Shown one piece after another: positions 3,492 to 27,763 of a DNA stretch of 64,000 nucleotides. Source of the stretch: Clostridia bacterium. Its GTDB lineage: Bacteria; Bacillota; Clostridia; DUPQ01. Position numbers and translations under genes: made by a program. Where the stretch lies: assembly GCA_030592085.1 (NCBI GenBank), contig JAUUZV010000001.1, positions 807-64,806 of the forward strand, in the 5' to 3' direction. The notes under the pieces are model-generated. The model was not told the origin of the DNA and did no database searches. It saw only the letters and a program-made list of their open reading frames with translations. The first letter of the stretch is position 1. The number at the start of each line of letters is the position of its first letter.

Positions 3492-3495
3492 TTTT

Positions 3496-8289: not shown

Positions 8290-8292
8290 TTT

Positions 8293-8828: not shown

Positions 8829-8846
8829 TTTTTATCTCATAATGTA

Positions 8847-8868
8847 AATTAAAAAATAAAAAAAATTG
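8847..8868 (-). terminator. oligo-T tract (TTTTTTTATTTTTTAATTT on the transcribed strand) just 3' of gene 8875..9936
   Basis: A-run on the plus strand, so a T-run on the minus strand, directly after the stop codon. The same element recurs after three other minus-strand genes. Confidence 0.4.
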
Positions 8869-8874
8869 TTAGAT

Positions 8875-9936
8875 TTAACTAACGGATAATACGAGCCTAG
8901 GTAGGTTTATAGTAGCTACAGCGACTTGCGTTGCTGCATCTGTCCAACATCCAACGTTTATTGTATCCTGTGCTTTTACAGAATTATATCTACCTTCTGC
9001 ACAAAATTCAATAATAGGGTCATCGCTTGGATTTACTCCAGCAGCCGATTCCATATAAAAGTCGACGTAAGATTCTCTATCCCCAATAGTTCCAATGTCA
9101 TAAGCATATTCATATCCTGAATATTTTCTTAAATCATCTGAAGCCATACTGGTTTTAACATCTACTAATTTTTGTCCACCATCTCTTGATACGATTGGTT
9201 CATCATATTCCGACCCATCAGCATCCACAAGCATAAATACCTTTAGACCATCTTCACCAAATTGTTTCTTGGTTTCGTTTGTTTTCATATAGATTCTTGT
9301 ATCTATATATCCATCAGTAGCTAAAGTTAGTGCTGAATTACCTGAAGCATCTGCAACTGTTAAACTAGATCCATTTGCATCTATGTAAGCAGTACTTCCA
9401 CCAATCTCAAAGAAAGTTGATCCACCGGAATACTTATCTTCTACCTTAAATTTAGGTGAGTCAATAGCTTTTCCCATAACATCTATCTTTGCGGTTGCTC
9501 CTACTGCACTAAACTCTACACTTTCAGCACTTGTATATGCGTCTACACTTGTTACTGTAATAACTTTCCAACCTGTACCACAAGTTACATCTGCATTACT
9601 TGAAAAATTTCCATTAGTATGTAATGTTCCTAATGTAGTTCGTCTTTCATTTGCATTTGTTGGTACTGCATATGCTGTTGGGTTTCCATATGTTATTGTT
9701 GACGCAAGTCCTTCTTGATATCGAACAACAATACCTGTTAATTCGCTATCTGGGCAACTTGCAACAACACCGCCAACTTGCGCACCAGGTGTTCCTGGTT
9801 GTGGGGCAGTACTAGCTGGAGCGCAAGCACCTAATATGACTGATAATGCTAAAAGCATACCAATCAACATGTTTCTTTTCTTCATTTTGGTTTCCACCTC
9901 ATTATATTTATCTATTAAACTACTATATGTAGTCAA
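8875..9936 (-). CDS. secreted paralog A with lipoprotein-like signal; abundant-structural-protein candidate
   Basis: An internal start MKKRNMLIGMLLALSVILGAC looks like a signal peptide with a lipobox-like Cys. It is about 65% identical to ORF 10916..12013 over its whole length (shared LVGKAIDSPKFKVEDKYSGGSTFF, QFGEDGLKV.MLVDADGSE.DEPIV.RDGGQKLVDV and VGCWTDAA). Confidence 0.55.
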   Translation of the reverse strand: MTTYSSLIDKYNEVETKMKKRNMLIGMLLALSVILGACAPASTAPQPGTPGAQVGGVVASCPDSELTGIVVRYQEGLASTITYGNPTAYAVPTNANERRTTLGTLHTNGNFSSNADVTCGTGWKVITVTSVDAYTSAESVEFSAVGATAKIDVMGKAIDSPKFKVEDKYSGGSTFFEIGGSTAYIDANGSSLTVADASGNSALTLATDGYIDTRIYMKTNETKKQFGEDGLKVFMLVDADGSEYDEPIVSRDGGQKLVDVKTSMASDDLRKYSGYEYAYDIGTIGDRESYVDFYMESAAGVNPSDDPIIEFCAEGRYNSVKAQDTINVGCWTDAATQVAVATINLPRLVLSVS

Positions 9937-9941
9937 TATCT

Positions 9942-10856
9942 TTACTCAAATGTAACAAAATCTTTAGCCATTAAACGGCCTTCTTTAATTATATCTTTGA
10001 TACTTAATAATCCAAAGATAACAATCATTAGTCCTATCGCGTCTAGTATTACACCTCCTGGAAATGTTGTTAATGCTGCTAAAACTACAGCTCCTCCTAC
10101 GAAGATTGCATTATTAACAGCATGAACTCCAATACTGAAAAGCAATCCTAAATTTCCAAACTTATATATAAAAATATTTAATATAAGTCTAAAAAGAGCA
10201 GCAAAAGCAAAAAGTCCTACGTTCATACTACCGTTATCGTTTAAATATGTATTATTAAATACGTGAAGAATAGCAAATAATACAACACTAAAAATCATAG
10301 ACATTGTAAAATCCCACACCTCATTACCTTTCTCTCCATAATCTAAATGTAAAAGTTTTCGTGTTCCAAGTCCAAGAACTAAACTACCCATTAAAACAAA
10401 ACCAAAACCAAGAACTATTTCTTCTATTACTGCTGCAGATAATACTGTAATAAAAAATACCCAAAAAGGAGATGTGGCAGCACTTAATGCTGAAAAAGTT
10501 TGACTACCTAATCCTACACCAAACTGAGCTAATGGTGCCATCACAAAAGGAGAATAAAAGTTCATACCCGTAAATGTTGAAAAACTAAAAAATATTAATA
10601 ATGAAATCACACCAAGAAACAACGCAAGAAATCCTCGTTCAGTTGTTCTATTAATAGGAATTTCAAACCAAAAATCAAGTTTTGCTAAATATTTAGCAAC
10701 GACGGCAATTAAAATAAAAACTACACCAATAATAAATAGCCATAAATATGCCACACCAGCTTCTAAGCCAAGTCGACTCAGCCAGTATAAACCAAAGAGT
10801 GCGAAAGTAAGAAATGTTGCAATTATTATATTGAATGGAAATTTTGAGTCTGTCAT
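9942..10856 (-). CDS. CPBP/CAAX-family intramembrane metalloprotease-like protein
   Basis: 304 aa with 7-8 TM helices. Motifs EEIVLG (EExxx), FAILH (FxxxH) and HAVNN (HxxxN) are typical of the Abi/CPBP family. Confidence 0.5.
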   Translation of the reverse strand: MTDSKFPFNIIIATFLTFALFGLYWLSRLGLEAGVAYLWLFIIGVVFILIAVVAKYLAKLDFWFEIPINRTTERGFLALFLGVISLLIFFSFSTFTGMNFYSPFVMAPLAQFGVGLGSQTFSALSAATSPFWVFFITVLSAAVIEEIVLGFGFVLMGSLVLGLGTRKLLHLDYGEKGNEVWDFTMSMIFSVVLFAILHVFNNTYLNDNGSMNVGLFAFAALFRLILNIFIYKFGNLGLLFSIGVHAVNNAIFVGGAVVLAALTTFPGGVILDAIGLMIVIFGLLSIKDIIKEGRLMAKDFVTFE

Positions 10857-10915: not shown

Positions 10916-12013
10916 TTAAGAAATGTCATATTTAAACTTAGGCAAATTAGCAGTTGCTACAGCAGCCTGATTTGCAGCATCTGTCCAACATCCAACCTTA
11001 ACTGTATCTTTTTCTTTTACAGAATTATATTTACCTTCTGCACAAAATTCTACAATTGGGTCAGTTGAAGGATTAACACCAGCAGCTGATTCCATATACA
11101 AATCTATAAAAGATTCTCTGTCACCAATACTACCGATTTCGTAGGCATACTCAAAACCCGAATATTTACGAAGATCATCTGGCATCATGCTTTGCATAAC
11201 ATCTACTAATTTTTGTCCACCATCTCTAGCTACGATTGGTTCATCCCATTCTGAGCCATCTGCATCAACCAACATCCAAACTTTTAAACCATCTTCACCA
11301 AATTGGTTTTTAGTATTGTTTGTTTTAATGTAGATTCGTGAATCTAGATATCCATCGGTACCAATAGTTAATGCAGTAGCACCAGCTTGATCAGCAATTG
11401 TGTCTTGTGTTCCATCAAAAGCTACATATCCTGTACCTGCTGCGGTAGTTCCAGCATTACCTGAATTGTTAAAGAAAGTTGATCCACCAGAATACTTATC
11501 TTCTACCTTAAATTTAGGTGAGTCGATAGCTTTTCCAACTAAATCACGCTTAACAAAAGCGCCACTTGCAACAAAACCTTCAGCTTCTTCAGCACTTGAA
11601 TAAGCATCTTGACTTGTTATAGCAACAGCACGCCATTTTGTACCTGATGTAAGACAAGGTAAATCAACTGCAGCTGAATATGAGCCATCTGTTGCTAGAG
11701 CACCTGAAGTAACTCTTTCCTGTCCTTCACTTTGAGGTATAAAATATACTGTTGGATCTCCGTATGTTATTACAGAAGCAAGACTTTCTTGGTATCTTAC
11801 TTGTCCACTTGTTGTTGAATCATCTGGGCAACTTACAATAGCCCCCACTGACTGAATACCTGTTTCTGTCAAAGCATCTTGCGGTGCAATTGTAGCAGCT
11901 GCAGGTCCAGTTGTTCTAGCGACAAAAACTATACTAGTAACTAAGATTGCAAGAGCAATTAGAACTAATATTGTCATACCGGTAGAAACTCCACCTTTCT
12001 TATTTCCTAACAT
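10916..12013 (-). CDS. secreted paralog B with class-III (type IV pilin-like) signal peptide
   Basis: N-terminus MLGNKKGG/VSTGMTILVLIALAILV resembles an archaeal prepilin/archaellin signal. The protein is homologous to ORF 8875..9936. Confidence 0.55.
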   Translation of the reverse strand: MLGNKKGGVSTGMTILVLIALAILVTSIVFVARTTGPAAATIAPQDALTETGIQSVGAIVSCPDDSTTSGQVRYQESLASVITYGDPTVYFIPQSEGQERVTSGALATDGSYSAAVDLPCLTSGTKWRAVAITSQDAYSSAEEAEGFVASGAFVKRDLVGKAIDSPKFKVEDKYSGGSTFFNNSGNAGTTAAGTGYVAFDGTQDTIADQAGATALTIGTDGYLDSRIYIKTNNTKNQFGEDGLKVWMLVDADGSEWDEPIVARDGGQKLVDVMQSMMPDDLRKYSGFEYAYEIGSIGDRESFIDLYMESAAGVNPSTDPIVEFCAEGKYNSVKEKDTVKVGCWTDAANQAAVATANLPKFKYDIS

Positions 12014-13430: not shown

Positions 13431-13691
13431 ATGGAAAATGAAGCAGACATATATAAATATTATATAGGTAAAAGAGTTCGTATAACAAAACAACTGGCTA
13501 ATGGTAAAAATTTTTTCTATAGAGGCTTAGCAACTAAATTAATTAATAATAAATTAATTATTAATGATAAATATGTTGGCCAAATAGTAATAGCTTTTGA
13601 TGAAATTAAATTAATAGAAGTTATGTCACATAAATTAGATGACTTTAAAGATGTTCTGCCAGAAAATACGGACGATAAAAAAAATGAATGA
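13431..13691 (+). CDS. small beta-rich protein, possibly Sm-like or SH3-like
   Basis: 86-aa ORF with the pattern GKRVRI..(n)..G.L..(n)..VGQIVIAFDEIKLIEV. A TATATAAT element lies about 20 nt upstream. Confidence 0.3.
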   Translation: MENEADIYKYYIGKRVRITKQLANGKNFFYRGLATKLINNKLIINDKYVGQIVIAFDEIKLIEVMSHKLDDFKDVLPENTDDKKNE

Positions 13692-16377
13692 AATATTTAA
13701 TGTAAACGATGTCGAAAAAACATTTCAATTAACCAACTATGATGAAATAGAAATACGTGTTATTGAACCTAAAAAAGGTTCAAAAAACATTAAAACATTT
13801 CATACTCACAACAAACAAGATTTTATTAATAAAGCTAAAGAATTCTCAGGACAATCAATAAATCAAATTTATCATAGTGTATTCTTTGGAGTTAACGAAA
13901 GAAAAAAAGGTTGTAGTAAAGAAAAAGATATTTTCAAAGTAAATATTCTTCCTATCGATTTAGATTACAAAAGAGAATCATATACTAGTACTACTGATGA
14001 ACAAGTAAAATATACTATTGAAATAGGTCACAAATTAAGACAGTGGTTTATTGATAATAACTTTGAAGCTCCTTCTATGTCAATGAGTGGAAATGGAGTT
14101 GGATTATACCTAAAAGTACCGGCTATTCCTTTCAAAAACAATGAAGCTATGCTTGATTTTAAAGCTAAGTGGACATTATTTACTAAAAAAATACGAAAAA
14201 TTATAACAAATATGACTGATAAAGTTGAAGTTGATTACATACAAGATCTAAGTAGAATATTTAAAATTGTAGGAACTATGTCTGTAAAAGGAAATAAACA
14301 CAGACTAACAAAATGGATTGAATATAATAATAAAGAAGATGAAAACTTAAAAGAATATATTATGCAAATGGACGCTGAAGAAGAAAAAACCAAACCAATT
14401 GAAGTTAAACCTTTAAGTAAAGATATGTTAAAAAAAATCATTGAAGATGCTAATATTCAAGAATTACTAAATATGAAAGGAGAACAGGGAAAAAGAAGTG
14501 AGTTAGAACAAAAATTATTTAATAAGTTAGTACTAAAAGGAATAACTGATTTTAAACAATTAGACGCTATTATGAGTACTTGTAAGATTGGTAAATGGCA
14601 AGAAGGAACCAAATCTTATAAAGAGCATACATATAAAAATTCTTTAGCGTTTGTTGCTAAACTTAAAAAAAATAAGCCAAAACAAACTGGAAGTTATATC
14701 AGTGTTGAATTAAGCGATAATAGATATTTAATTAATAATAAATCAGGAATTTTTATACAAAAAGAACAGTATGATAAAAATAAAAAAGAACCATTTTATA
14801 CAAAAGAAAGAACAATTCATACTTGGCATATAGAAAAAGTAATTGTTGAACTATCCGCATACATGGATGACTTCTATTTTAAAATATTTGTTACTGATAA
14901 CAAACACAAACGAGAATTAAAAGGAACTATTGATGAAGTAGCTGAACTATTTAAAAAAATTCCTGGTTGTTGTGAATCTAGAAGTGTAAAAGATTGTATG
15001 TCACATCTGGTTAGTTTTTTGCAAACAGAAGAACGAGTAGAAATTGAAAAAAATCCTTTAACAACTGCGTTTGGGTTTGCTTATGATAAAGAAAATAAAA
15101 AAATAATTATAAAAGATGTGCTTCAAAACACTAAAATGGTTGAAGAAGTCACAAAAGAACAACTAAAAAAAGGTTTAGACGCCCTGTTTACTATTATAGA
15201 TAGTTATAATAAATCAGAATCACATAGAAATGAGTTAATAAGAATCATGGCAACTGGTTTGATTTATCCGTTTGGTTATATAAGAAAACAAATGTTACAG
15301 TTAGCTCCATTTGTAATTGTAAATGGACCATCAGGAACTGGAAAGACTTTAAGTGGTGATGTTATTCTTTGTATGTGGGGTTGTTGGGGTAAAAGAGGTT
15401 TTGAACATTCTGGAAGTACTGTTAATGGAGCTTATCAATTAGCAAAAAAATGTAGTGAAAATACAATGTTCTTATTGATAAACGAAGCTGGACAGTTTTT
15501 AGCTAAATTCTCTGAAAATAACGAGATCACAGAATTGTTAAAAAATATGGTTGAATCTCCATTCCCAATACGAGATAAAAAAAGTGGAATGTTTATTTCT
15601 TTTAGGACTCCTTTCTTAACTGCCAACTATCCTTTTAAATTTAGTACTGATGCGTTAAGATTAAAGACTTTAGTGTTCTCTTTTGAGAACGATTTTACAC
15701 ATTCAGGTGATGAAAGAGCAGAAGTAATGCAATTATTAAGTTCATCTGAAAGAGATTTATCTTATATTGGTTCTTGGCTAACAAATAAAGTATCACAACA
15801 TGATAAAAAATATTTTGATATTATTACACAGAAAGATTATGCAAAAGCTTCTATGGATTTACTTAAAGAGTTGCTTGCTGATTCTGGAATGAATCATGAT
15901 TTACCAACACCTCCAGTAGTAGGGTCTTACATAAATAATGAAACTACATCATTTTGGGAAAATATGATTGATTATATGAGAATAGAAATAATAAAAAGAG
16001 CTAAACAAGTTGCAAGTATTGATGAATCAAAAGAAGGATTAAATGTAAGACAGTGTATAGATATAATTATAGATAAAAATAATTTACCTACTTGGTTAAT
16101 AACTATTCACAAAGATGTGGAATTAAAAGTACTTGTACCTGCTGAAATTCAACAATATGTGCAGACATTCTCTAAAGAAACCTTTGAAATGGGAGTTTAT
16201 GAGAAAGAAGTAAAAAATAGAGATGGTTATGATTATGTAAAAAGTAAAAATGTGCGTGTGCACGGTAAATCTACCAAAAAAAGTGGCATGTATGTGTTAA
16301 AGTCAAAATTTGTTGAGTTATTCGAAGAGCGTGCGCACCTTGAAAAACAAAAAACATTGTCTAATTCTGCACCATAA
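13639..16377 (+). CDS. primase-helicase: AEP-type primase domain fused to a D5-like SF3 helicase
   Basis: N-terminal region has ILPIDLDYK (DxD) and MSGNGVGLY (sGxGxH-like), which are AEP primase motifs. C-terminal region has the Walker A VNGPSGTGKT followed by LLINEAG (Walker B). The start may instead be the ATG at 13684 (MNEIFNV). Confidence 0.7.
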   Translation: MTLKMFCQKIRTIKKMNEIFNVNDVEKTFQLTNYDEIEIRVIEPKKGSKNIKTFHTHNKQDFINKAKEFSGQSINQIYHSVFFGVNERKKGCSKEKDIFKVNILPIDLDYKRESYTSTTDEQVKYTIEIGHKLRQWFIDNNFEAPSMSMSGNGVGLYLKVPAIPFKNNEAMLDFKAKWTLFTKKIRKIITNMTDKVEVDYIQDLSRIFKIVGTMSVKGNKHRLTKWIEYNNKEDENLKEYIMQMDAEEEKTKPIEVKPLSKDMLKKIIEDANIQELLNMKGEQGKRSELEQKLFNKLVLKGITDFKQLDAIMSTCKIGKWQEGTKSYKEHTYKNSLAFVAKLKKNKPKQTGSYISVELSDNRYLINNKSGIFIQKEQYDKNKKEPFYTKERTIHTWHIEKVIVELSAYMDDFYFKIFVTDNKHKRELKGTIDEVAELFKKIPGCCESRSVKDCMSHLVSFLQTEERVEIEKNPLTTAFGFAYDKENKKIIIKDVLQNTKMVEEVTKEQLKKGLDALFTIIDSYNKSESHRNELIRIMATGLIYPFGYIRKQMLQLAPFVIVNGPSGTGKTLSGDVILCMWGCWGKRGFEHSGSTVNGAYQLAKKCSENTMFLLINEAGQFLAKFSENNEITELLKNMVESPFPIRDKKSGMFISFRTPFLTANYPFKFSTDALRLKTLVFSFENDFTHSGDERAEVMQLLSSSERDLSYIGSWLTNKVSQHDKKYFDIITQKDYAKASMDLLKELLADSGMNHDLPTPPVVGSYINNETTSFWENMIDYMRIEIIKRAKQVASIDESKEGLNVRQCIDIIIDKNNLPTWLITIHKDVELKVLVPAEIQQYVQTFSKETFEMGVYEKEVKNRDGYDYVKSKNVRVHGKSTKKSGMYVLKSKFVELFEERAHLEKQKTLSNSAP

Positions 16378-16727: not shown

Positions 16728-17105
16728 ATGAAAAGAGTAGAATTACTAAAGATTGATGTAGATAAGTATGTAAACGATAAAGCCCAGATTGTTTCAGCTG
16801 AGGTAGTTAAGTTGAAATTTGGAACAGTAATAAAAGTTTTAACAAACCCGTTAGAACTTAAAGGAGATGATAAGCTCCCAGAAGGTCGTCATTTGACTGG
16901 AAGTATTTTATTAGGATTGGTAGATTCAGATGAAGGTTTGGCTATTGGAATAGATGGTAAATCTGAAAAATGGTTAATTGCTCATGGAGTAGATGTGACA
17001 AAAGATATTCCAGATGACTTAAAGATTGGAGATCAATGCAAAGCACTTCTTGGAAAAGATGTAGTTGTTCAAAAGAATACTGGCGGTTTCTTAGAAATTG
17101 CTTAA
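16728..17105 (+). CDS. hypothetical acidic protein
   Basis: 125-aa ORF with a strong SD, GGAGGAAATTAAAAA, before the ATG. Confidence 0.45.
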   Translation: MKRVELLKIDVDKYVNDKAQIVSAEVVKLKFGTVIKVLTNPLELKGDDKLPEGRHLTGSILLGLVDSDEGLAIGIDGKSEKWLIAHGVDVTKDIPDDLKIGDQCKALLGKDVVVQKNTGGFLEIA

Positions 17106-17125
17106 TTTTTTTTATTTTTTTTAAA

Positions 17126-17518
17126 ATGCGAAATGATGGTGTTAATTATGAAGAACATATTAACAAGTTTTTTAAAGGAACGAACGTGTCTAATATACAT
17201 AATTACTGTGATATAGAGACTAAAAGTTCGTTATATGAAGTAAAAGGATGTAAAATATACTTAGAAAACAAGACTGGGTCAATGAGTTTAGGAAGATACC
17301 AAATAAATTTTGATAATCACAAACAATTAAAACAAGAAGCTGATAAGTTAAATAAAAAAGCAAAATATGTTTTTTTGTTAAGAATTGACAGACAAAAAAT
17401 ATTTAAAACAATGTCGTGGTTGGTAGTAAATCATATATTATTATTAGAAGGTCGAGAATTTAAAAAAGAAGATAGTGAAACAAAAATGTATAATATAAGA
17501 TTAAGGAGCGTGTGGTAA
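17126..17518 (+). CDS. PD-(D/E)xK nuclease-like protein, possibly an Hjc/RecB-like resolvase
   Basis: YCDIETKSSLYEVKGCK fits a D...E.K nuclease core. The internal Met at 17126 was chosen because the track ORF start at 17036 overlaps the upstream gene. Confidence 0.3.
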   Translation: MRNDGVNYEEHINKFFKGTNVSNIHNYCDIETKSSLYEVKGCKIYLENKTGSMSLGRYQINFDNHKQLKQEADKLNKKAKYVFLLRIDRQKIFKTMSWLVVNHILLLEGREFKKEDSETKMYNIRLRSVW

Positions 17519-17519
17519 A

Positions 17520-17909
17520 ATGTTTAAATTAAAAAAAGAATTTAATATTAGTTGTAGTCATAGACTTTTTGATATGGATGCGTCAGATGAAACAAATAGT
17601 ATAATTTTTGGTAGATGTTGTAAAAATCATGGGCACAATTATAAAATAATTCTTTATCTTAAATCTGACTCATTAAAGCATGGTATGTTATTAAATTTTA
17701 ATGAAATAAAAGACATTTTCAACTTACATATAGATAATGTATATGATCATAAATTTTTGAATGATTGTCCTGGTTTTGAAAACGTTATACCAACTGCAGA
17801 AAATATGTGTAAAGTGTTTTTTAATAAGCTTAAAGTACATTTATCGACTTTATATGCTGTAGAAATATATGAAACAGAAGGTGCTTCTGCTATTTATGAG
17901 GATGATTAA
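17520..17909 (+). CDS. queD: 6-carboxy-5,6,7,8-tetrahydropterin synthase (QueD/PTPS family)
   Basis: CSHRLFDMD, CCKNHGHNYKI (CxxxHGH) and DHKFLND are QueD/PTPS signature motifs. SD AAGGAG upstream. Confidence 0.7.
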   Translation: MFKLKKEFNISCSHRLFDMDASDETNSIIFGRCCKNHGHNYKIILYLKSDSLKHGMLLNFNEIKDIFNLHIDNVYDHKFLNDCPGFENVIPTAENMCKVFFNKLKVHLSTLYAVEIYETEGASAIYEDD

Positions 17910-17910
17910 A

Positions 17911-18495
17911 ATGAAAGTGAATGAAATGTTTGAATCGTTGCAAGGCGAAGGTCGTTTTGTTGGATATCCTGTTATGTTTATTAGAATGTCAGGGTGTAAT
18001 AGGTCTTGCGTCTTTTGCGACACATCTTATCATAACGAAGGAGAAGAACTGTCAGTAGAACAAATGGTTAAAAAGATAGATAAAAGTAATATGAATATTA
18101 TTATTTTTACTGGAGGAGAACCTATGATGCAGTTCGATGATATTATAAAAGTTATTGAACAAACAAAAGATAAACAATATCATATTGAAACTAATGGTGA
18201 TTTATTAGTTCCTGAAAGTTATTTTGATTATGTATGTTTTTCACCTAAAAGTGAAGAAGGTTTAAATAAAGCATTAGGATATCCTGGTATATGTGATATA
18301 AAAGTAGTTACAGATTTAAATTTAAATAAAAATATGTTAGAGTCAGCGACGATGATAATGCCGTTAACAACTATATCAGATATTAAAAATTTAAAAATTA
18401 AACAACAAGTATGGAAGTATTGTGAGAAACATAACAAGCGATATGCACCTAGACTTCATGTGGATGTTTGGGGAATGTCTAAACGAGGAGTTTAA
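17911..18495 (+). CDS. queE: 7-carboxy-7-deazaguanine synthase (QueE, radical SAM)
   Basis: Start is the ATG after GAGGATGA. MFESLQGEGRFVGYPVMFIRMSGCNRSCVFCDT carries the radical-SAM CxxxCxxC cluster motif and a QueE-like N-terminus. Confidence 0.75.
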   Translation: MKVNEMFESLQGEGRFVGYPVMFIRMSGCNRSCVFCDTSYHNEGEELSVEQMVKKIDKSNMNIIIFTGGEPMMQFDDIIKVIEQTKDKQYHIETNGDLLVPESYFDYVCFSPKSEEGLNKALGYPGICDIKVVTDLNLNKNMLESATMIMPLTTISDIKNLKIKQQVWKYCEKHNKRYAPRLHVDVWGMSKRGV

Positions 18496-18885
18496 ATGAG
18501 AGATAATACAGATAATCTAAACAAAATGTATATTAGTTGGGAACAGTTTGGTATTGATATTGATAAATTAGCAAATCTTATTAGTTTAGAAGCTAGAGAG
18601 TTTGATAGCATTTATGGAATACCTCGTAATGGCACTATTATATCTAGTATTCTATCAAAAATGTTAAATTTGAAAATGGTTGATTATCCAGACTCCACTA
18701 GAACTCTTATAGTTGACGATATTTCGGATTCAGGAAAAACCTTAAAGGAATATAAGAACAAATTTAACGGTAATGTGATAGCTTGTATTTTTTATCGACA
18801 AAATACAGAAATAATGCCAGATATAGTTGTATATGATGCACAAAAAGATTGGATTGTATTTCCTTTTGAATTAAATGAAAAATAA
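18496..18885 (+). CDS. xanthine-guanine phosphoribosyltransferase-like type I PRTase
   Basis: TLIVDDISDSGKTL is a PRPP-binding motif. The N-terminal YISWEQF, the central GIPRNGTIISSIL and the C-terminal VVYDAQKDWIVFPF are collinear with E. coli Gpt. Confidence 0.65.
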   Translation: MRDNTDNLNKMYISWEQFGIDIDKLANLISLEAREFDSIYGIPRNGTIISSILSKMLNLKMVDYPDSTRTLIVDDISDSGKTLKEYKNKFNGNVIACIFYRQNTEIMPDIVVYDAQKDWIVFPFELNEK

Positions 18886-18899
18886 TTAATATAATAAAA

Positions 18900-19307
18900 A
18901 TGGCATCTGAAATGATCAATAACGAAGAATTAAACAATATGATACCTAAAGATCGTCACTCTGTTTTTAAAAAATTATCAGCAGAGGAAATAAGAAACTT
19001 ACATCCATCATATGTTAAAGTCATTGAAGAAAGTGGTATTACAGTTGAAGAGTATTTAGAACGAGTAAGAACAAAAAAATATCAAAAAAATAATAATCAA
19101 AAAATGAATGAACAACAAATGAATGATTTGGTAGATAAAGAAGTTGAGAAGGTAAAACAGCGGGATAAAACTGATGTTTTGAATAAGATTAAACACGCAA
19201 AACCACCTAAATCCGGCTCAAGGTTTGAAGATGTGTTAAAAGGTTATGAAGAAAAATATAAATATAAGTACAAGCGATTTGTCAAAGATTACAGGAATTC
19301 ATCTTAG
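18900..19307 (+). CDS. hypothetical Lys/Glu-rich protein
   Basis: 135-aa ORF of charged low complexity. Confidence 0.35.
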   Translation: MASEMINNEELNNMIPKDRHSVFKKLSAEEIRNLHPSYVKVIEESGITVEEYLERVRTKKYQKNNNQKMNEQQMNDLVDKEVEKVKQRDKTDVLNKIKHAKPPKSGSRFEDVLKGYEEKYKYKYKRFVKDYRNSS

Positions 19308-19382
19308 TTATGTTTCACGATTAAAGAAACAAGTTAAGGAATATTTAGAAGATCAAAATAAAAAACATTAAATGAGGTAAAA

Positions 19383-19877
19383 ATGATACAAAATCCAGAA
19401 ATGATTATAGAAAAAGATTTTGTTTCTCCAGTTACAGAGGAACAAATACAAATGAATGGAATTGATTTGAGAGTTGAAAGTGTACAGTCTATTGAAGGTG
19501 TTGTTTCTATATTTAAAGATAGTAAACAGTTGCCAAATTATATAAATATAAAGAGTGAAGTTAATTTAAATAAAGGAAAAATTTGGAAATTAGAACCTGG
19601 TAAAGCTTATCTTTTACAAATAGCAGAAACAATAAAAATACCAGAAGGAATGTGTGCTATGGTTTGGATGCGTTCAACCTTTAATAGAAGTGGAATTCCT
19701 ATCTTTGCCTGTGTTTTTGATTCAGGTTATGAAGGCAAACCAACATTCACAGCATATCCTACAATTCCTTTGTATTTAGAAAAAGGAACAAGGGTGGCTC
19801 AGATAGTTTATTTTAATGCTGATACTGCTAAAATGTATGTTGGTCAGTATCAAGGAGAAGGAATAAAAAAAGAATGA
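19383..19877 (+). CDS. dCTP deaminase/dUTPase-superfamily enzyme
   Basis: NGIDLRV, LEPGKAYLLQ and VFDSGYEGK are the beta-barrel dUTPase/Dcd motifs. SD GAGGT upstream. Confidence 0.6.
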   Translation: MIQNPEMIIEKDFVSPVTEEQIQMNGIDLRVESVQSIEGVVSIFKDSKQLPNYINIKSEVNLNKGKIWKLEPGKAYLLQIAETIKIPEGMCAMVWMRSTFNRSGIPIFACVFDSGYEGKPTFTAYPTIPLYLEKGTRVAQIVYFNADTAKMYVGQYQGEGIKKE

Positions 19878-19892
19878 ATGAGGTAATATAAA

Positions 19893-20123
19893 ATGAAAAA
19901 AATGAATACTTTAAGTAGGGCAACAATTTATGTGCATCGAAATCATGAAATGAGAGAAAAAGGAAGACTCAAATTTTTTAAACATGAAAGAATTAGGATT
20001 GAAATTAAATTAAAAAATAAAGAAAAAGCTGATTTCATTTATGCTGATGAGCTACAGAAATATCTAGCCGAAAATTTTGAATATGGAACAAAGTTAGAAA
20101 AGGAGGAGAAAAAAGATGAATAA
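19893..20123 (+). CDS. hypothetical small basic protein
   Basis: 76-aa ORF with an SD upstream. Confidence 0.3.
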   Translation: MKKMNTLSRATIYVHRNHEMREKGRLKFFKHERIRIEIKLKNKEKADFIYADELQKYLAENFEYGTKLEKEEKKDE

Positions 20124-20946
20124 AGAATTACCAAAATATAGAAATAAAGAAGATACAACAGGTTTAGCAATACAAAAAGTTGGTATACGAGGAGTAAGAG
20201 CACCGTTTACTTTAAAAACAAAAAATGGTGGAGATCAAGAAACTATAGGAACTTGGAGTATATATACAGATTTATCAGCACAATTTAAAGGTGTTAGTAT
20301 GAGTCTTATGGAAAGAATACTACATCAAACTTTACAAAATGAAATAAGTGTTGATATATTAAAAGATATAACAACTCAAATTTATGAAAAGTCTGAACAC
20401 AAATCCAAAGATGTATATGTGAAAGTTAAATTTCCATACTCAATTAAAGTTAAAGCACCAGCATCTGGTTTTGAAGCTGTAAAGGTTTATGATTGTATGT
20501 TGGAAGTTAGAAATATTGATGGAAAGATTAAAAAATATTTAACTGTAAAAGTTCAATATATAGCAACTTGTCCATGTGCGGCTGAATTAGCTGATGAATT
20601 AATGAAGACTGAAAATAAACAAAGTATGGCACATCAACAAAGAGGTTTTGCTGAAATTACTATAGAATTTGGAAATGAAATTGTATGGATAGAAGATGTG
20701 ATTAACATTGCAGAAAATGAATTAAAAGCTACACCATATCCAGTTATTAGAAGGCCAGATGAACAAAATATTTGTTATACAGCACGTCAAAACTGTGCTT
20801 TTGTAGAAGAAGCTGTAAGAAATATTTGTCTTGGTCTTATTAAAGAATCTAGAATTTTAGATTATGTTGTAGTATGTAATCATGAGGAAAGTATTCATTC
20901 TCACTCAGCCGTTGCTGTAATGAATGATGGAAAGGAGTTAAAATGA
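20116..20946 (+). CDS. folE2: GTP cyclohydrolase FolE2/MptA family (GCYH-IB)
   Basis: N-terminal VGIRGVRAPF, GVSMSLMERI (compare GxHMSRF) and the conserved CPC motif (ATCPCAAEL). SD GGAGGAG upstream. Confidence 0.65.
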   Translation: MNKELPKYRNKEDTTGLAIQKVGIRGVRAPFTLKTKNGGDQETIGTWSIYTDLSAQFKGVSMSLMERILHQTLQNEISVDILKDITTQIYEKSEHKSKDVYVKVKFPYSIKVKAPASGFEAVKVYDCMLEVRNIDGKIKKYLTVKVQYIATCPCAAELADELMKTENKQSMAHQQRGFAEITIEFGNEIVWIEDVINIAENELKATPYPVIRRPDEQNICYTARQNCAFVEEAVRNICLGLIKESRILDYVVVCNHEESIHSHSAVAVMNDGKELK

Positions 20947-21293
20947 GCAAAATAACTAAATCAATAATTGTAAAAACAGTTTTTAATGGAGAACATATGT
21001 ATGAAGATGCACCAGAAGAAATTAAATTTCTGAGGGAACTTCACCCGCATATTTTTTTTGTATCGGCAAATATAGAGGTAACTAATAGCACTCGTGAATT
21101 AGAATTTTTCATGGTAAAAAGAGTTATAGACGACTATTGTAAAGAGTTTTTAACAGGTAATAGTGGTCGCTCTTGCGAAACTATGGCAGAATCTATTATT
21201 AATCTTTTACATAAAAAATATGGAAAAAGAAATTGTACTGTAACTGTATACGAAGATAACCAGAATGCTGGGAGGGTAAAATATGAAATTTGA
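20943..21293 (+). CDS. hypothetical protein
   Basis: 116-aa ORF, translationally coupled to its neighbours (ATGA overlap). Confidence 0.35.
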   Translation: MSKITKSIIVKTVFNGEHMYEDAPEEIKFLRELHPHIFFVSANIEVTNSTRELEFFMVKRVIDDYCKEFLTGNSGRSCETMAESIINLLHKKYGKRNCTVTVYEDNQNAGRVKYEI

Positions 21294-21516
21294 AATAACT
21301 TTAGATGTGAAAGATGAAGCTATACAAAAACATTTTAAAGATTTTTGTCAAAGTTTAGCTGATAGATTTGCTGCAGGGGAAAAAGAATACGGTGTAAGTA
21401 GTTACATGGATATGGATTTAGAAGAAGAATTAAAACAGGAATTACTCGATATTCCAAATTATTTGTTGTTAAGGTTTATTCAAATGCAAAAAAGAAAGGA
21501 GGCGGCAAAAAAATGA
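21283..21516 (+). CDS. hypothetical small acidic protein
   Basis: 77-aa ORF with SD GGGAGGG. Confidence 0.3.
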   Translation: MKFEITLDVKDEAIQKHFKDFCQSLADRFAAGEKEYGVSSYMDMDLEEELKQELLDIPNYLLLRFIQMQKRKEAAKK

Positions 21517-22262
21517 AATTAGCTTTTATTAGTACTATAAAGAACCCACAACTAAGTTTAGAAGGAGATTTGTTATTCACTTTAGCACAACATGCTTTTA
21601 AGGTAGATGATTATATTGAATTTTATAAAAAACAAAAAAAATACAAGATTGTTGATTGTGGCGCCGCGGAACATGAAACTGTAAAACCAGAAATATTGTT
21701 AGATGTAGCTCGTGAATTGGATGCTAATGAAATCATTGTTCCAGATAAATTATGTGTTGGTTGGCGCTCAACTTTAATGGCTAAAAATTTTTTTGAAACA
21801 CTTAGTCATGATGAAGCAAAAAAATATACTTTTCAATTAGTTGGTCAAGGAAAAACACCAGAACAATATATGACAAATGTAAATAATGTACTTAATCATG
21901 ATTTATGTCCACCAAATGTTATTTTAGGCATAAGTAAATTTTCTTCAGTTATGTCTTTTGGTAACAGAGTAAGATGTGTAAAACATCTTATTGATAATGG
22001 TATCAAAAATGAAATGCATTTGCTTGGTACTACAGATGATTTAGCTGAGATTGTGAAGTTGAAAGACATTGCTCAAATTAGAAGTAATGATAGTTGTATT
22101 GCTATTTTAGCAGCAACTGAAGGATTAAAATTTACAAAAGATAATTTGTCTACGCTTAAACGTCCTGTAACTACAAATAAATATTTTGATATTCAGATGA
22201 GTGAAGAACAAATATTATTGGCTAAAGAAAATATGAAAGTACTAAAAAATACACAGGCTTAA
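21513..22262 (+). CDS. hypothetical protein at the end of the deazaguanine module; candidate transglycosylase (DpdA/TGT-like?), unproven
   Basis: 249-aa ORF with SD AAGGAGG. Its position after FolE2/QueD/QueE is suggestive, but no diagnostic motif was recognised by eye. Confidence 0.3.
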   Translation: MKLAFISTIKNPQLSLEGDLLFTLAQHAFKVDDYIEFYKKQKKYKIVDCGAAEHETVKPEILLDVARELDANEIIVPDKLCVGWRSTLMAKNFFETLSHDEAKKYTFQLVGQGKTPEQYMTNVNNVLNHDLCPPNVILGISKFSSVMSFGNRVRCVKHLIDNGIKNEMHLLGTTDDLAEIVKLKDIAQIRSNDSCIAILAATEGLKFTKDNLSTLKRPVTTNKYFDIQMSEEQILLAKENMKVLKNTQA

Positions 22263-22508
22263 ATGTGTATTTTATAGGCCAATAGTATTTAAATATTTAC
22301 ATTTTTATATACTATAATAATGTATAAAATACAAATTCTTAATAAATTTACCGGTTGGGATAGTTTTAAACATAAAAAAACTAAAAAAACTCAATATTTT
22401 TTAACTAAATCTAATGCTATGAGAATTATTACTGTTTTTTTAGGAAATATAAAAAATATTAGAATAGTAAATACAGAAGATAAAAAAATTGTTTTCGAGA
22501 GGTGAAAA

Positions 22509-22760
22509 ATGACTAAAACAACATATAATATATATCATGAAAAAGGAAAGGTAGATGAGTTTATAGCTTATTCTTCACAAGATGCTGCATATAAACACGT
22601 TAGAAAAGTAGATGCAAAAATAGGTCATAAATTTATTGTAGGTTCTAATTTAGCACCACCGTTTTTTTCTTATGTAGTAAAAACAGTAGAAGGAAGACGA
22701 AAGGCTGTTAAAGTTGATAAAATTAAGACTGATATTACTCGTGGATTTTTAATGAAGTGA
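22509..22760 (+). CDS. hypothetical small protein
   Basis: 83-aa ORF with SD GAGGTG. Confidence 0.3.
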   Translation: MTKTTYNIYHEKGKVDEFIAYSSQDAAYKHVRKVDAKIGHKFIVGSNLAPPFFSYVVKTVEGRRKAVKVDKIKTDITRGFLMK

Positions 22761-22787
22761 CGATTATTTAAAAAACAATATGAATGA

Positions 22788-23906
22788 ATGACTATGAAAG
22801 CCGTATTATATATGAGATTGTTTGAAGATTCTGGAATAACTAAATTACAAATATTTAAAAATAAAAAAGAACATCTTGTTGAGTTACCATTTAAACCTTA
22901 TTTTTTTGACTCAGCCAAAATAGATGGGTTAGTTGGAGAAGAAGTTATTTTAAAACCAGTTGATACATTACAACCTACTAAACTTTTTAAATATGAAGTT
23001 GATTCTGTAAAAGATATACCTAAATTAAGAACTAAAACGAGTATAGCTGCAGATGTAAATTATTTATTACGATTATGTATAGATCAACCTAGCTTTTTGA
23101 ACCAGTATTTTCAAACAGATGAATTAACATTTTTATATCTTGATATTGAAACTGATAGTATTGGAATTTTCCCTAAGCCTGAATTGAACCCAATTATTAG
23201 TATAGGATATGCTATTAATGATGGTCCAGTAAAAGTAATTAAAATTGATAAATTAGAAGATGGTGATATAAAACTTTTATTAGAGTTTAATGAAGTTATG
23301 GAAAAGTACAATCCTGATGTCATAGTTGGATATAATATTTTAATGTTCGATTTACCATATATTTTGAAAAGAATGAAAAAGAATGGAATAAGTACAGATT
23401 GTTGGACAAGAGGTAAAACATCTGCATTTTTCACAACTAGTTCTGGTAATGAAGTTTATAATATTCAAGGAAGGTTTGTATTTGATGTGATTAAAGAAGT
23501 GTTTCAAGATCAAACAATTCATGGCATTTCGAAAGGATTAAAACCAGTTTCAAAATATTTTAAAGTTGATGAAAAAATAAGACAAATACCAGGATATGAA
23601 GATTATCAAATTATAACTGAAGATGTTCATATCACGAGGCCATTAATCGGAACAGATAAATTGGCAAAATATAATGAGAGTGATGTTCTTATCACACGTG
23701 AATTATGTAAAATGTACATTGCTAATGTGATAGCGTTTGCAGAAATGTTACATGCTCCATTAAATATGATGGCTAAACGAACTACAAGTATGATAGGTTC
23801 TATTTTTTATGCAACCGAACTTAAAAAGAAAGGTATTATTGAATGTACTATGCCTAATTATAAAAGACACCCAGATGTATTTGGAACTTTAAAGGAGGGT
23901 TATTAA
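22788..23906 (+). CDS. polB: family B DNA polymerase, N-terminal half (3'-5' exonuclease domain)
   Basis: Exo I is YLDIETD, Exo II is YNILMFDLPY, Exo III is YNESD. The gene ends in TAA, which overlaps the ATG of the next gene. Confidence 0.75.
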   Translation: MTMKAVLYMRLFEDSGITKLQIFKNKKEHLVELPFKPYFFDSAKIDGLVGEEVILKPVDTLQPTKLFKYEVDSVKDIPKLRTKTSIAADVNYLLRLCIDQPSFLNQYFQTDELTFLYLDIETDSIGIFPKPELNPIISIGYAINDGPVKVIKIDKLEDGDIKLLLEFNEVMEKYNPDVIVGYNILMFDLPYILKRMKKNGISTDCWTRGKTSAFFTTSSGNEVYNIQGRFVFDVIKEVFQDQTIHGISKGLKPVSKYFKVDEKIRQIPGYEDYQIITEDVHITRPLIGTDKLAKYNESDVLITRELCKMYIANVIAFAEMLHAPLNMMAKRTTSMIGSIFYATELKKKGIIECTMPNYKRHPDVFGTLKEGY

Positions 23907-25105
23907 TGCCTTTTTTTAGAGAGTCTCGATTTAATGATGAGAAAGGAATACAAGGAGCTATTGTAGAGATTTATAAAACTGGTTTAATACGAAAAATAAA
24001 AAAGGTTGATTTTTCTGCTTTTTATCCTAGCATTGTTATGAGTTTTAATTTATCACCAGAAACAACAAAGATAAAGGAATATTTACCTTATACTAATAAA
24101 TATGATTTTGATATACAAAAGGATAGAACATTGTTATATATTCCAGATAATAGAATTAATAAAACAGTTGTCATTGAAATAAATAACACTATTCAAGGAT
24201 TTCTTCCAGCAAAACTTATTGAATTTAAAGAAAAAAGAGATAAGATTAAATTAAGATTAAGAGAAAAAAATTTAACACCAGGTGAACAAGTTTATCTTAA
24301 TAGTTTATCATGGACTTATAAAATTTTATCAAATTCTGTTGGTTATGGAATTAATAAAAATGCATGGTTTAAATATGGAGATTTATCAATATCAATAGCA
24401 ATTACTGGATTGGCTAGATATTTTATTCAGTTTGTAATGGACTTAAATCTTGATAAGAATATTGAAGTAGATACTGATGGTATATATGTAGATGGTGATA
24501 TAAATATTGATGATGTTAATTATAAAATAAAGGAACATACATTAGATAAATTTAATATTCCATTTGTTAAAAATTATTTATTTTTAGAGTTAGATGAATA
24601 CGATGCTGGATTTTTTTATAAAACTAAGAATTATCTTTTATTTAATAATGGTAAAGTTATAAAACATGGTGTTACATTTTTATCAAGTAGTAAAACAATA
24701 CTTTTTAAGAAAGCTTTAGATAAAATAGCTGAATATATATTTAATAATAAGTCAGTTATTGAAGCTGTTAATATACTTATAAATGAAGAAAGTACACTTA
24801 AAGATTTTACTATGAAAACTAATATAAATCAACCTATTTCTGAATATAAAAATGATGGATGTTTGCAAAAACAATTAGCTAAACAAGTTAAAGAACATTT
24901 AAAACAAGATTTACAAGTTTCTGATACAATCGATTATATTAAGACCAAAGATGGCTATAAAATATTAACGATAGCAAAGTTACACGAAGTTGATAAAAGA
25001 TATTATTATGATCAATTACAAACGTTAATTAATATTTTTACTGATGAAAAAATTAGTATTGAGAACGGTGGAGCTGTAATACAAAAAAAACTTGAAGGGT
25101 ATTAG
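23906..25105 (+). CDS. polB: family B DNA polymerase, C-terminal half (polymerase domain)
   Basis: Motif A is DFSAFYPSI, motif B is KILSNSVGYG, motif C is VDTDGIYV. It is in a different frame from the upstream half and overlaps it by 1 nt. Confidence 0.75.
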   Translation: MPFFRESRFNDEKGIQGAIVEIYKTGLIRKIKKVDFSAFYPSIVMSFNLSPETTKIKEYLPYTNKYDFDIQKDRTLLYIPDNRINKTVVIEINNTIQGFLPAKLIEFKEKRDKIKLRLREKNLTPGEQVYLNSLSWTYKILSNSVGYGINKNAWFKYGDLSISIAITGLARYFIQFVMDLNLDKNIEVDTDGIYVDGDINIDDVNYKIKEHTLDKFNIPFVKNYLFLELDEYDAGFFYKTKNYLLFNNGKVIKHGVTFLSSSKTILFKKALDKIAEYIFNNKSVIEAVNILINEESTLKDFTMKTNINQPISEYKNDGCLQKQLAKQVKEHLKQDLQVSDTIDYIKTKDGYKILTIAKLHEVDKRYYYDQLQTLINIFTDEKISIENGGAVIQKKLEGY

Positions 25106-27133: not shown

Positions 27134-27763
27134 ATGAATGAAATGGAAACAAAAAAAATAGCAATAGTTGGTGCTGGTGGCATTAATAGTTGGGCTATAA
27201 AATGGTTACATCAGTTAATTGAAGATTTTGATAGAAAATTAATTTATGTAAAGATCTTCGATAATGATGAAGTAGAAGAAAAGAATTTACTACGTAATAA
27301 TCAAAATTTTCAAATAGATGATTTACTATCACAAAAGGCGGAAGTTCTTTCTGAAAGATATAACTTTGATTGTGAAAACATTTTTATTACTGAGGATAAT
27401 ATTCAAAAATTAGCTAGTTTTGATGATATAATTTTAGGAGTAGATAATCATAAAACTAGGAAATTAATTTATGATTTTGCATTAAAGAATAATAAATATG
27501 TTCTTGATATGAGAGCTCAAGGCACTATCATGGGTTTTACAATTATAGATGGTAGTAAAGACATGGATTATTATAATAAAAAAATGTTTAATAATTTAGA
27601 AGTTATGGAAAGAAAAGGTAGTTGTCAGTTAAAGAGTGATGTTGAAAATGATCATATAGAAAATGCTAATCGAGTAATAGCAATGTTAGGTATTTATTCA
27701 GTTTATTTGAAAAGATTAAGAAAAGAAAAAGTATCTACGGACGAATGGAAATTTGTATATTAA
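27134..27763 (+). CDS. ThiF/MoeB/E1-like adenylyltransferase (adenylation domain only)
   Basis: IVGAGGINSW is the Gly-rich loop. FDNDEVEEKNLLRNNQ matches DxDxVExSNLNRQ. LGVDNHKTRKLI matches the DN..R motif. There is no C-terminal CxxC region. Confidence 0.6.
   Translation: MNEMETKKIAIVGAGGINSWAIKWLHQLIEDFDRKLIYVKIFDNDEVEEKNLLRNNQNFQIDDLLSQKAEVLSERYNFDCENIFITEDNIQKLASFDDIILGVDNHKTRKLIYDFALKNNKYVLDMRAQGTIMGFTIIDGSKDMDYYNKKMFNNLEVMERKGSCQLKSDVENDHIENANRVIAMLGIYSVYLKRLRKEKVSTDEWKFVY

Follow-up and report, generated by a model that had tools for sequence, protein, structure and literature searches.

The question raised by the gene block at positions 17520-22262 of the 64,000-nt stretch of contig JAUUZV010000001.1 (Clostridia bacterium, assembly GCA_030592085.1), hereafter referred to as the window, is whether it encodes a complete route for replacing guanine in DNA and, if so, by which base. 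All coordinates are window positions, and the analyses of the window cover its full 64,000 nt. An original prediction had read this block as a 7-deazaguanine DNA-modification module lying among replication genes and built on three enzymes, namely QueD, QueE and a GTP cyclohydrolase. The core of that reading stands and is strengthened by two further genes, DpdL and DpdA3, while the product then proposed (7-carboxy-7-deazaguanine, CDG) and the archaeal MptA type assigned to the cyclohydrolase had to be abandoned. DpdL, DpdA3, a purine phosphoribosyltransferase (PRT) and a dUTPase-like gene had all been overlooked within the same interval. With reasonable, though not full, confidence the block can be regarded as a self-contained module that would make 7-deazaguanine (DG) and write it in place of guanine into the DNA of its own element, probably at all or most G positions.

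The block belongs to a single run of + strand genes extending from about 13.6 to 43.8 kb, in a very A+T-rich sequence (22-35% G+C in 2-kb bins). It comprises ten open reading frames (ORFs), packed tightly or overlapping, and most of them have a ribosome-binding site of the GGAGG or GAGG type upstream. Their products were searched against Pfam, NCBIfam (with its curated equivalog cut-offs) and PHROG. QueD, QueE and the GTP cyclohydrolase lie where the original prediction had placed them, within 3.4 kb from the start of the first gene to the end of the last (17520-20946). They were assigned to the expected families with scores far beyond chance, and the motifs quoted for them are real. QueD (6-carboxytetrahydropterin synthase, 17520-17909, +) displays a Pfam PTPS match at E 1e-30 over residues 4-127, a PHROG QueD-like match at E 8.9e-16 and the CxxxHGH motif in the form CCKNHGH (17616-17636). 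Its match to TIGR03367 (E 5.5e-21) reaches 74.8 bits but stays under the equivalog cut-off of 89.25; the protein appears to be a divergent viral sequence, assigned to its family from motif, Pfam and context. QueE (radical-SAM CDG synthase) occupies the ORF at 17869-18495 (+), with a likely true start at the ATG at 17911, after a GAGG Shine-Dalgarno sequence, and carries the CxxxCxxC motif as CNRSCVFC (17995-18018) together with QGEG (17941-17952). QueE models take the first five places in NCBIfam (E 4e-23 to 2e-15), the PHROG match is QueE-like (E 1.5e-31) and the nearest solved structures by sequence, the top three PDB matches, are the QueE enzymes 6nhl, 4njg and 5tgs. All NCBIfam trusted cut-offs are nevertheless missed (best 82 bits vs 260), the aligned part being the N-terminal 100-120 residues only. 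The C-terminal half is divergent, yet conserved in one of the related contigs described below (L003). The first pathway step is encoded at 20116-20946 (+) by FolE2 (GTP cyclohydrolase IB, GCYH-IB), with Pfam GCHY-1 (PF02649) at E 1.3e-66 over residues 9-267 and the CPC motif at 20569-20577. The FolE2 equivalog NF010200 is passed with 229.4 bits (cut-off 215), whereas the MptA model TIGR00294 yields 118.2 bits against a cut-off of 220, so that the sequence is that of a bacterial-type FolE2 and not of the MptA-like archaeal enzyme initially suggested.

The enzyme expected to insert the modified base was absent from the original prediction. It is encoded at 21513-22262 (+) and ends at the very coordinate at which the predicted interval ended. 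Its 249-residue product has no Pfam or NCBIfam match. A tblastn search of the phage genomes with this ORF retrieved six records only, all in full-length alignments at 24-26% identity: five Cellulophaga phages of the phiST group and Chryseobacterium phage MA9V-3. In BLASTP the protein aligns over its whole length with CGPG_00065 of phage phiST (24% identity, E 2e-13), the founding member of DpdA3, a DNA transglycosylase subfamily tied to complete guanine replacement (Cui, Hutinet et al., NAR 2023, PMC10516641). The AlphaFold2 model of the window protein is of high quality (predicted local distance difference test, pLDDT, 97.4; predicted template modelling score, pTM, 0.93), and the top 50 PDB structures retrieved with it by Foldseek are all tRNA-guanine transglycosylases (TGT; E about 5e-7, TMq 0.53-0.67). 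Among 77-79 aligned family members D48 (21654-21656), D78 (21744-21746), H169, L171, G172, D193 and N240 are invariant. With the family profile the best PDB sequence is the bacterial DpdA 7ui4 (E 3.6e-4), the HLLG (22017-22028 in the window) and S-x-DS motifs (within RSNDS, 22080-22094) being aligned. Profile-profile comparison of the family by hhalign gave a probability of 99.9 (E 2e-31) with the DpdA3 of Flavobacterium phage immuto_2-6A and of 22 with the DpdA1 of phage PaMx25. DUF6610, the model of DpdA4, is also touched by 4 of 79 family members, which points to neighbouring subfamilies. The 21513-22262 protein is thus a DpdA3-family transglycosylase of TGT fold, and DNA base exchange is predicted for it from homology and from the modelled structure.

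The family is abundant. A profile made from three DpdA3 sequences collected 2,519 cluster representatives at E <= 1e-3 among 1.8 billion proteins, and the window's own proteins are singletons. No DNA match to region 17000-23000 was obtained by blastn against 50,697 phage records. Scans of IMG/VR with the three-member DpdA3 alignment and of the GTDB genomes with the window protein returned no relative, and no DpdA3 homolog was detected in the PLSDB plasmids.

The gene at 20943-21293 (+) encodes a 116-residue protein that aligns over its full length with the phiST DpdL CGPG_00067 (BLASTP, 25% identity, E 2e-10). DpdL is a paralog of QueD in which CxxxHGH has become LxxxHRHxF, and it has been proposed to decarboxylate CDG to 7-deazaguanine (PMC10516641). 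The window protein matches phrog_17812 (E 5.8e-11) and shows a faint Pfam PTPS match only. The corresponding motif reads LRELHPHIF (21030-21056); in an alignment with QueD sequences a Leu stands where those enzymes have their catalytic Cys, and the segment holding the Asp-His dyad of QueD is missing. In the AlphaFold2 model (pLDDT 82) the T-fold is retained, the Foldseek top 26 being QueD or PTPS enzymes with E. coli QueD 4ntk as best structural match (E 2e-4, TM 0.61-0.68). A hidden Markov model (HMM) built here joins the window protein to those of phiST, MA9V-3 and the related contigs L003, L009, L016, L018 and L022. The motif is LKDVHRHNF in L003, FLRKMHPHTF in L009, FLKEYHDHIF in L016, FLREWHRHIF in L018 and FLRYPHMHKF in L022; with R, P, D or M between the two His, this residue seems free to vary. 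The protein is of the DpdL type, and decarboxylation of CDG is predicted for it from its homology and model.

The recently published phage MA9V-3 (L001, PV245944.1) holds two unannotated genes of these families beside queE and folE. One is a DpdL-like sequence (7647-8528, HMM E 2e-20) inside a 293-residue ORF, the other a DpdA3 gene (9001-9795, HMM E 1e-85). The ORF adjoining DpdA3 was considered as DpdL and rejected for lack of similarity, the DpdL of this phage being the preceding, longer ORF. MA9V-3 is probably another genome carrying the deoxynucleoside of DG (dDG).

The arrangement of the block is conserved. The order QueD-QueE-PRT-(dUTPase)-FolE/FolE2-DpdL-small ORF-DpdA3 recurs in the independent contigs L003, L009 and L016, with a family-B DNA polymerase (PolB) next to it in L003 and L016 as in the window, and most of the related contigs have about 28% G+C. 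The 59.9-kb contig L003 carries QueD, a LAGLIDADG gene, QueE, PRT, dUTPase, FolE2, a DpdL-LAGLIDADG fusion, a DUF1599 protein, DpdA3 (55% identical to that of the window) and a split PolB. L009 encodes QueD, QueE, PRT, dUTPase, a classical FolE, DpdL, a 73-residue ORF, DpdA3 and a helicase; L016 encodes QueD, QueE, PRT, FolE2, DpdL, an 80-residue ORF, DpdA3 and an unsplit PolB, with no dUTPase in the cluster. L018 holds QueD, QueE, a PRT-FolE fusion and DpdL, and the partial contig L022 (4.5 kb) presents QueD, dUTPase, FolE2, DpdL, DUF1599, DpdA3 and QueE in a rearranged order. A single slot is therefore filled by FolE2 in L003, L016 and L022 and by classical FolE in L009 and L018, which fixes this step as GTP cyclohydrolase I chemistry. 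Homing-endonuclease sequences have settled in these clusters: a free-standing LAGLIDADG sequence lies between QueD and QueE of L003 (3363-4001), another is fused to the C-terminus of the L003 DpdL (8777-9742), which is also N-terminally extended to give 321 residues in total, and a LAGLIDADG gene stands just upstream of DpdA3 in L021.

The nature of the product depends on QueC, which was found nowhere in the window. The SGGxDS motif does not occur in the six frames, the best tblastn match of E. coli QueC has an E value of 6.6 (the same query detects the Gat-QueC of phage PaMx25 at 2e-9) and the other 83 ORFs, screened with Pfam at 1e-4, include no QueC (PF06508), QueF or TGT, the only families detected being Resolvase, GT2, ThiF, Laminin_G_3, YdjM, TrmB, HTH_11 and HNH. 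These searches, which bear out the absence of QueC originally noted, cover the 64 kb of the window, which is all but about 3 kb of its source contig of 67 kb. A ThiF/E1-family adenylyltransferase-like protein (27134-27763, Pfam ThiF 4.8e-12), encoded directly upstream of a 702-residue ORF without matches, was considered as a substitute for QueC, a role for which there is no evidence. QueC was not found in L003, L009, L016 and L018 either. In the window, L003, L009 and L016 DpdL co-occurs with FolE or FolE2, QueD, QueE and DpdA without QueC, and it is strictly kept beside DpdA3 in all the related loci that lack QueC. The original prediction had concluded from the missing QueC that CDG would be the product unless the host supplied QueC. 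The presence of DpdL speaks against this, and so does phage phiST, which carries FolE, QueD, QueE, DpdL and DpdA3 and no QueC, and in which liquid chromatography-mass spectrometry detected 302,000 dDG per 10^6 nt and neither dG nor dCDG (PMC10516641). The gene set of the window being that of phiST, the expected product is dDG and not CDG. All three DpdA3 phage groups tested were fully replaced, and such modified DNAs withstand restriction at G-containing sites (PMC10516641).

A small Gpt-type 6-oxopurine PRT is encoded at 18496-18885 (+), between QueE and FolE2. It is recognized by Pfam Pribosyltran (1.6e-9) and by the phosphoribosyl pyrophosphate (PRPP) motif VDDISDSGKT (18712-18741). The xanthine PRT model NF006613 matches at 4.2e-15 with 55.7 bits, under its cut-off of 138, phrog_8995 matches at 1.4e-18 and the nearest PDB entries are the purine PRT 1vdm (2.3e-9) and the E. 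coli xanthine-guanine enzyme XGPRT. Homologs stand in the same position in L003, L009, L016 and phage immuto_2-6A; PaMx25 and L018 have the PRT fused to FolE. As read from the ORFs, the PaMx25 fusion has 297 residues (L007 6899-7792), with an N-terminal PRT and a C-terminal FolE domain, and that of L018 has 302 (3364-4272). In the PaMx25 record (L007, NC_041953.1) gp38, a 'hypothetical protein' at 6862-7236, is annotated in a frame that differs from that of the PRT-like tblastn match, and both gp38 and the start of folE look mis-annotated. The PRT lies at 11983-12378 in L004 and at 8001-8414 in L005.

Homologs of the PRT were retrieved from 55 phage records by tblastn (E <= 0.01). In 26 of these, from Pseudomonas, Xanthomonas, Vibrio and Stenotrophomonas phages, the match falls under a gene annotated as GTP cyclohydrolase. 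Campylobacter phages account for another 14, the gene adjoining a radical-SAM gene in CP21, and Cellulophaga phages of the phiST group for five. The four Flavobacterium immuto phages hold the PRT between QueE and FolE, two Brevundimonas phages have it adjoining FolE, and the remaining four records are unannotated. The Flavobacterium, Campylobacter and Cellulophaga groups each include representatives with complete 7-deazaguanine replacement (PMC10516641). A phosphoribosyltransferase goes unmentioned in that study and in the second key paper, and the searchable literature yielded none that ties such an enzyme to viral 7-deazaguanine or DpdA systems; the PRT is apparently a conserved, previously unremarked part of viral 7-deazaguanine clusters. 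Guanine salvage is the most economical reading of its function, given its fusion to the first, GTP-consuming enzyme and its occurrence in systems of the DpdA1 as well as the DpdA3 type. An acidic residue is conserved in the PRT at the position of the catalytic Asp (DDxxD) of hypoxanthine-guanine phosphoribosyltransferase (HGPRT). We take this Asp to contact N7 of the base, a contact that would be pointless for a substrate with carbon at this position. We infer that the PRT may recycle expelled guanine toward GTP.

The proposed operation of the module can be summarized as follows. FolE2 would convert GTP to dihydroneopterin triphosphate, from which QueD would form 6-carboxytetrahydropterin, and the radical-SAM enzyme QueE would contract the ring to give CDG. 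With no QueC no preQ0 would arise; DpdL would instead strip the carboxyl group from CDG to yield DG. After replication, DpdA3 would swap guanine for DG in duplex DNA and release the guanine, the roles of both DpdL and DpdA3 and the extent of replacement being deduced from phiST and its homologous genes. As our own addition to the scheme, the PRT would condense the freed guanine with PRPP to GMP, and host kinases would return it to GTP and close a recycling loop. Such recycling is suggested by the stoichiometry, since every exchange frees one guanine and one GTP is spent per 7-deazaguanine made. The modified DNA would be refractory to restriction enzymes and to other G-reading nucleases.

Several points weigh against this scheme. 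For both DpdL and DpdA3 the biochemical activity is so far proposed, and the heterologous tests of the original authors failed (PMC10516641). The phiST proteins are matched at only about 25% identity, and the middle residue of the DpdL motif is Pro here and Arg in phiST (R, P, D or M among the relatives). The host may itself supply QueC or preQ0. The occurrence of dDG in this element is predicted from its genes and the part given to the PRT is a deduction; in the tubercidin pathway a PRT can act on CDG itself (bioRxiv 10.64898/2026.04.15.718813).

This last precedent leads to a different order of events, in which the base would be replaced before replication: the PRT would make 7-deaza-GMP from CDG or DG and PRPP, DpdL acting before or after, host kinases and ribonucleotide reductase would deliver 7-deaza-dGTP for incorporation by PolB, and DpdA3 would be left with no more than the removal of residual G, or with a different function. 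Enzymes forming CDG, a PRT and a decarboxylase in the absence of QueC are also the principle on which tubercidin biosynthesis works, all phage groups with 100% replacement have kept the PRT, and a dUTPase or MazG-type NTP hydrolase is retained in the clusters. Complete replacement is also more readily pictured at the dNTP level, and DpdA3 activity has never been demonstrated. The PRT is however fused to FolE, the GTP-consuming first enzyme, rather than to the last enzyme forming the base, and it is also present in the DpdA1-type Queuovirinae-like phages, in which base exchange is reported to modify the DNA only in part (PMC10516641). The Pfam screen of the other 83 ORFs revealed no GMP kinase, ribonucleotide reductase or dGTP-specific hydrolase, and the HGPRT-type acidic residue, with its presumed N7 contact, is conserved. 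This route is considered quite unlikely for the present element. Its extension to DpdA3-type viruses at large, with complete replacement at the nucleotide level and DpdA3 confined to clean-up or repair, is held to be equally improbable; if true, it would refute the published proposal by which every viral 7-deazaguanine modification of DNA is introduced after replication. The recycling of guanine to GTP by the PRT is favoured over it.

Two other explanations keep or abandon DNA modification altogether. DpdL might not be a decarboxylase, and the DNA might then contain CDG, another CDG derivative or a preQ0-type base made with a host QueC. The function of DpdL is indeed only predicted, its motif is one residue off that of phiST at low overall identity, and dCDG has been found in the DNA of one archaeal virus (PMC10516641). 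Against this, in phiST, so far the sole genome of this gene content to be analysed, dDG is complete and dCDG was not detected, and DpdL accompanies DpdA3 in every related locus devoid of QueC; a product other than dDG is rated as rather unlikely. It is far less probable still that the genes are auxiliary metabolic genes supplying the host with queuosine or archaeosine precursors for tRNA, or with pterin or folate through FolE2 and a PTPS enzyme. Both families do serve folate and biopterin pathways as well, and QueDE are reported as viral auxiliary metabolic genes in metagenome surveys. QueE, on the other hand, commits the pathway to 7-deazaguanine; the lack of QueC and QueF in the window leaves no tRNA-usable preQ0 or preQ1; the TGT-fold protein is a member of DpdA3, a subfamily associated with DNA; and the block lies between replication genes and is conserved with PolB. 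Post-replicative exchange of guanine for DG remains the preferred reading.

The four remaining genes of the block are less telling. A dCTP-deaminase-fold (DCD) dUTPase-like enzyme is encoded at 19383-19877 (+), with Pfam DCD at 1.2e-22, the dUTPase model NF002598 at 3e-30 (104.9 bits, cut-off 130) and the DCD-type dUTPases 9w59 and 2yzj as best PDB matches. It most likely serves general hygiene of the dNTP pool or the dTTP supply of a 73% A+T genome. A Lys-rich hypothetical protein (18900-19307, +) has no significant match in Pfam, NCBIfam or PHROG; by eye, a similar small ORF of L003 (5363-5692) is a possible counterpart. Two small ORFs are conserved. The first, of 76 residues (19893-20123, +), resembles a sequence at 5130-5366 of L003 and has no family match. 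The second, of 77 residues (21283-21516, +), lies between DpdL and DpdA3, has no Pfam match and is 60% identical to the 73-residue ORF of L009 (5886-6107); its slot is taken by the Pfam DUF1599 protein in L003 and L022.

The DNA polymerase that the original prediction had placed beside the module is confirmed by Pfam as a PolB split in two (22788-25105, +), directly downstream of DpdA3. The exonuclease ORF (22788-23906, DNA_pol_B_exo1 2.6e-19) and the polymerase ORF (23906-25105, DNA_pol_B 3.7e-16) share an ATGA junction. The PolB of L003 is split too, with a 47-residue ORF between the parts, and that of L016 is one gene of 810 residues. The upstream neighbour, formerly described as a primase-helicase, is a putative replication protein of 912 residues (13639-16377, +). 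It displays a Walker A motif and, over residues 415-682 (18-29% of the length), 25-29% tblastn identity to helicase-like or hypothetical proteins of the Methanobacteriales viruses vir080 and Drs3; with no Pfam or PHROG match at E <= 0.001, the earlier designation can be kept only tentatively. This protein was rejected as a conserved part of the module, as it shows no detectable homology to the primase-helicase that L003 carries in this place. A close kinship with vir080 was likewise dismissed, only the helicase segment being shared with the window.

The element as a whole is hardly recognizable. The 10 largest ORFs have no PHROG match at 1e-3, only noise at E <= 1 and nearly no Pfam match, and neither a 477-residue ORF nor six concatenated large ORFs matched a phage by tblastn. 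Pfam and PHROG detected neither a terminase nor a portal or capsid gene among the window ORFs, and no tRNA gene occurs in the window. The element may be a tailed phage, a virus of another type or a plasmid; that it is a virus we infer from PolB, the modification module and the large tail-fibre-like proteins. Strong use of Shine-Dalgarno sites, which are not expected for Bacteroidota hosts, argues against a Bacteroidota host such as those of the closest characterized systems. A few weak hints are archaeal: the sole phage-database relatives of the 912-residue protein belong to Methanobacteriales viruses, the only GTDB relative of the PolB (24% identity) lies on a contig of an Aenigmatarchaeota metagenome-assembled genome without 7-deazaguanine genes, a TrmB-type helix-turn-helix protein is encoded in the window, and the best family match of the dUTPase is the DCD-fold model NF002598, its structural match 2yzj being one that we take to be archaeal. 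None of these is strong, and FolE2 is of the bacterial type. Should the hints hold, the locus would place a DpdA3 system in an archaeal virus, a group for which the 2023 study has DpdA4 as the specific subfamily (PMC10516641).

Other features of the window were recorded in passing. Coding strand and GC skew flip sign together at about 13300 and 43800, the skew being -0.1 to -0.36 outside these points and +0.2 to +0.42 inside, so that the sense strand has a strong G excess throughout. A block of large minus-strand ORFs includes one with a Laminin_G_3 domain. The proteins encoded at 8875-9936 (-) and 10916-12013 (-) are paralogs (59% identical, E 2e-141) with N-terminal hydrophobic anchors or signal peptides; they lie on either side of a polytopic membrane protein (9942-10856), where the G+C content of the window is locally highest (32-35%), and may be major structural or envelope proteins. 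A family-2 glycosyltransferase (1.4e-17) is encoded at 46658-47368 (-), and a serine resolvase/invertase (9.2e-27) at 49484-50137 (-), which could mediate integration or inversion. Finally, two proteins of about 840 residues each (60064-62583 and 57074-59584, both -) have signal peptides, C-terminal transmembrane anchors and many N-x-S/T sequons, and the former also displays D-x-DG-x-DCGG-x-C repeats rich in Cys; on visual inspection both look closer to surface or envelope glycoproteins than to typical tail proteins.

Replacement by 7-deazaguanine renders viral DNA resistant to many restriction enzymes and touches sequencing, cloning and the design of phage therapy. The present locus indicates that the phiST-type dDG gene set is not confined to phages of Bacteroidota, as it also occurs in an otherwise unrecognizable clade with about 28% G+C, Shine-Dalgarno initiation and FolE2 in place of FolE, and that the DpdA3-like family is large in metagenomes. 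The main added value lies in this recurrent low-GC clade and in the conserved PRT, which offers a concrete, testable idea of how the pathway may be fed by recycling expelled guanine. The compact and divergent DpdL and DpdA3 sequences might also serve as alternatives where the enzymes of phiST and ACP17 failed in E. coli.

The locus can be set against several known systems. The tubercidin cluster of Streptomyces shares CDG-forming genes without QueC, a PF00156 PRT and a decarboxylase (bioRxiv 10.64898/2026.04.15.718813); its decarboxylase is however of the UbiD family and not a T-fold enzyme, its product is a free nucleoside antibiotic, and it has neither a TGT-fold enzyme nor a polymerase context. 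The bacterial Dpd restriction-modification systems (DpdA/DpdB/DpdC; 7ui4) possess a TGT-fold DNA-guanine transglycosylase whose HLLG and S-x-DS motifs align with those of the family profile, but their DpdA is larger (436 residues), needs DpdB, places preQ0 at <0.1% of G and resides in a defence island instead of a virus (PMC10516641). The Queuovirinae-type phages (9g, CAjan, PaMx25) have the same upstream FolE, QueD and QueE, with the PRT domain fused to FolE; they use DpdA1 rather than DpdA3, carry QueC or Gat-QueC and are partially modified (about 25-30%) with dPreQ0 or dG+ (PMC10516641).

Among the systems with DpdA3, for which complete replacement is known by correlation in phiST, CP220 and immuto_2-6A (PMC10516641), the Campylobacter Firehammervirus phages (CP220, CP21) combine complete dADG replacement with a PRT homolog adjoining the radical-SAM QueE gene. 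They differ by a QueC-like amidating enzyme leading to ADG, by being T4-like myoviruses and by a PRT identity of only 22-24%. Flavobacterium phage immuto_2-6A shares the DpdA3 subfamily (hhalign 99.9%), and its PRT, the best homolog (36.8% identity), likewise lies between QueE and FolE, but this phage encodes QueC, QueF and the formyltransferase DpdN, lacks DpdL and yields a preQ1 derivative (PMC10516641). The closest counterpart is the Cellulophaga phage phiST (PMC10516641), which has the same enzyme set, the same lack of QueC and the same local order (QueD-QueE-GTP cyclohydrolase-NTP hydrolase-DpdL-small ORF-DpdA3, then polymerase), its DpdL (CGPG_00067) and DpdA3 (CGPG_00065) being full-length homologs of those of the window at about 25% identity. 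The differences are FolE and a MazG-like protein in phiST for FolE2 and the DCD-fold dUTPase in the window, HRH for HPH in the DpdL motif, and a PRT homolog located outside the cluster in phiST and inside it in the window; the rest of the element has nothing detectable in common with phiST. The locus is accordingly not a new kind of system but a distant new example, with FolE2 exchanged for FolE, of the phiST-type DpdL/DpdA3 system described in 2023.

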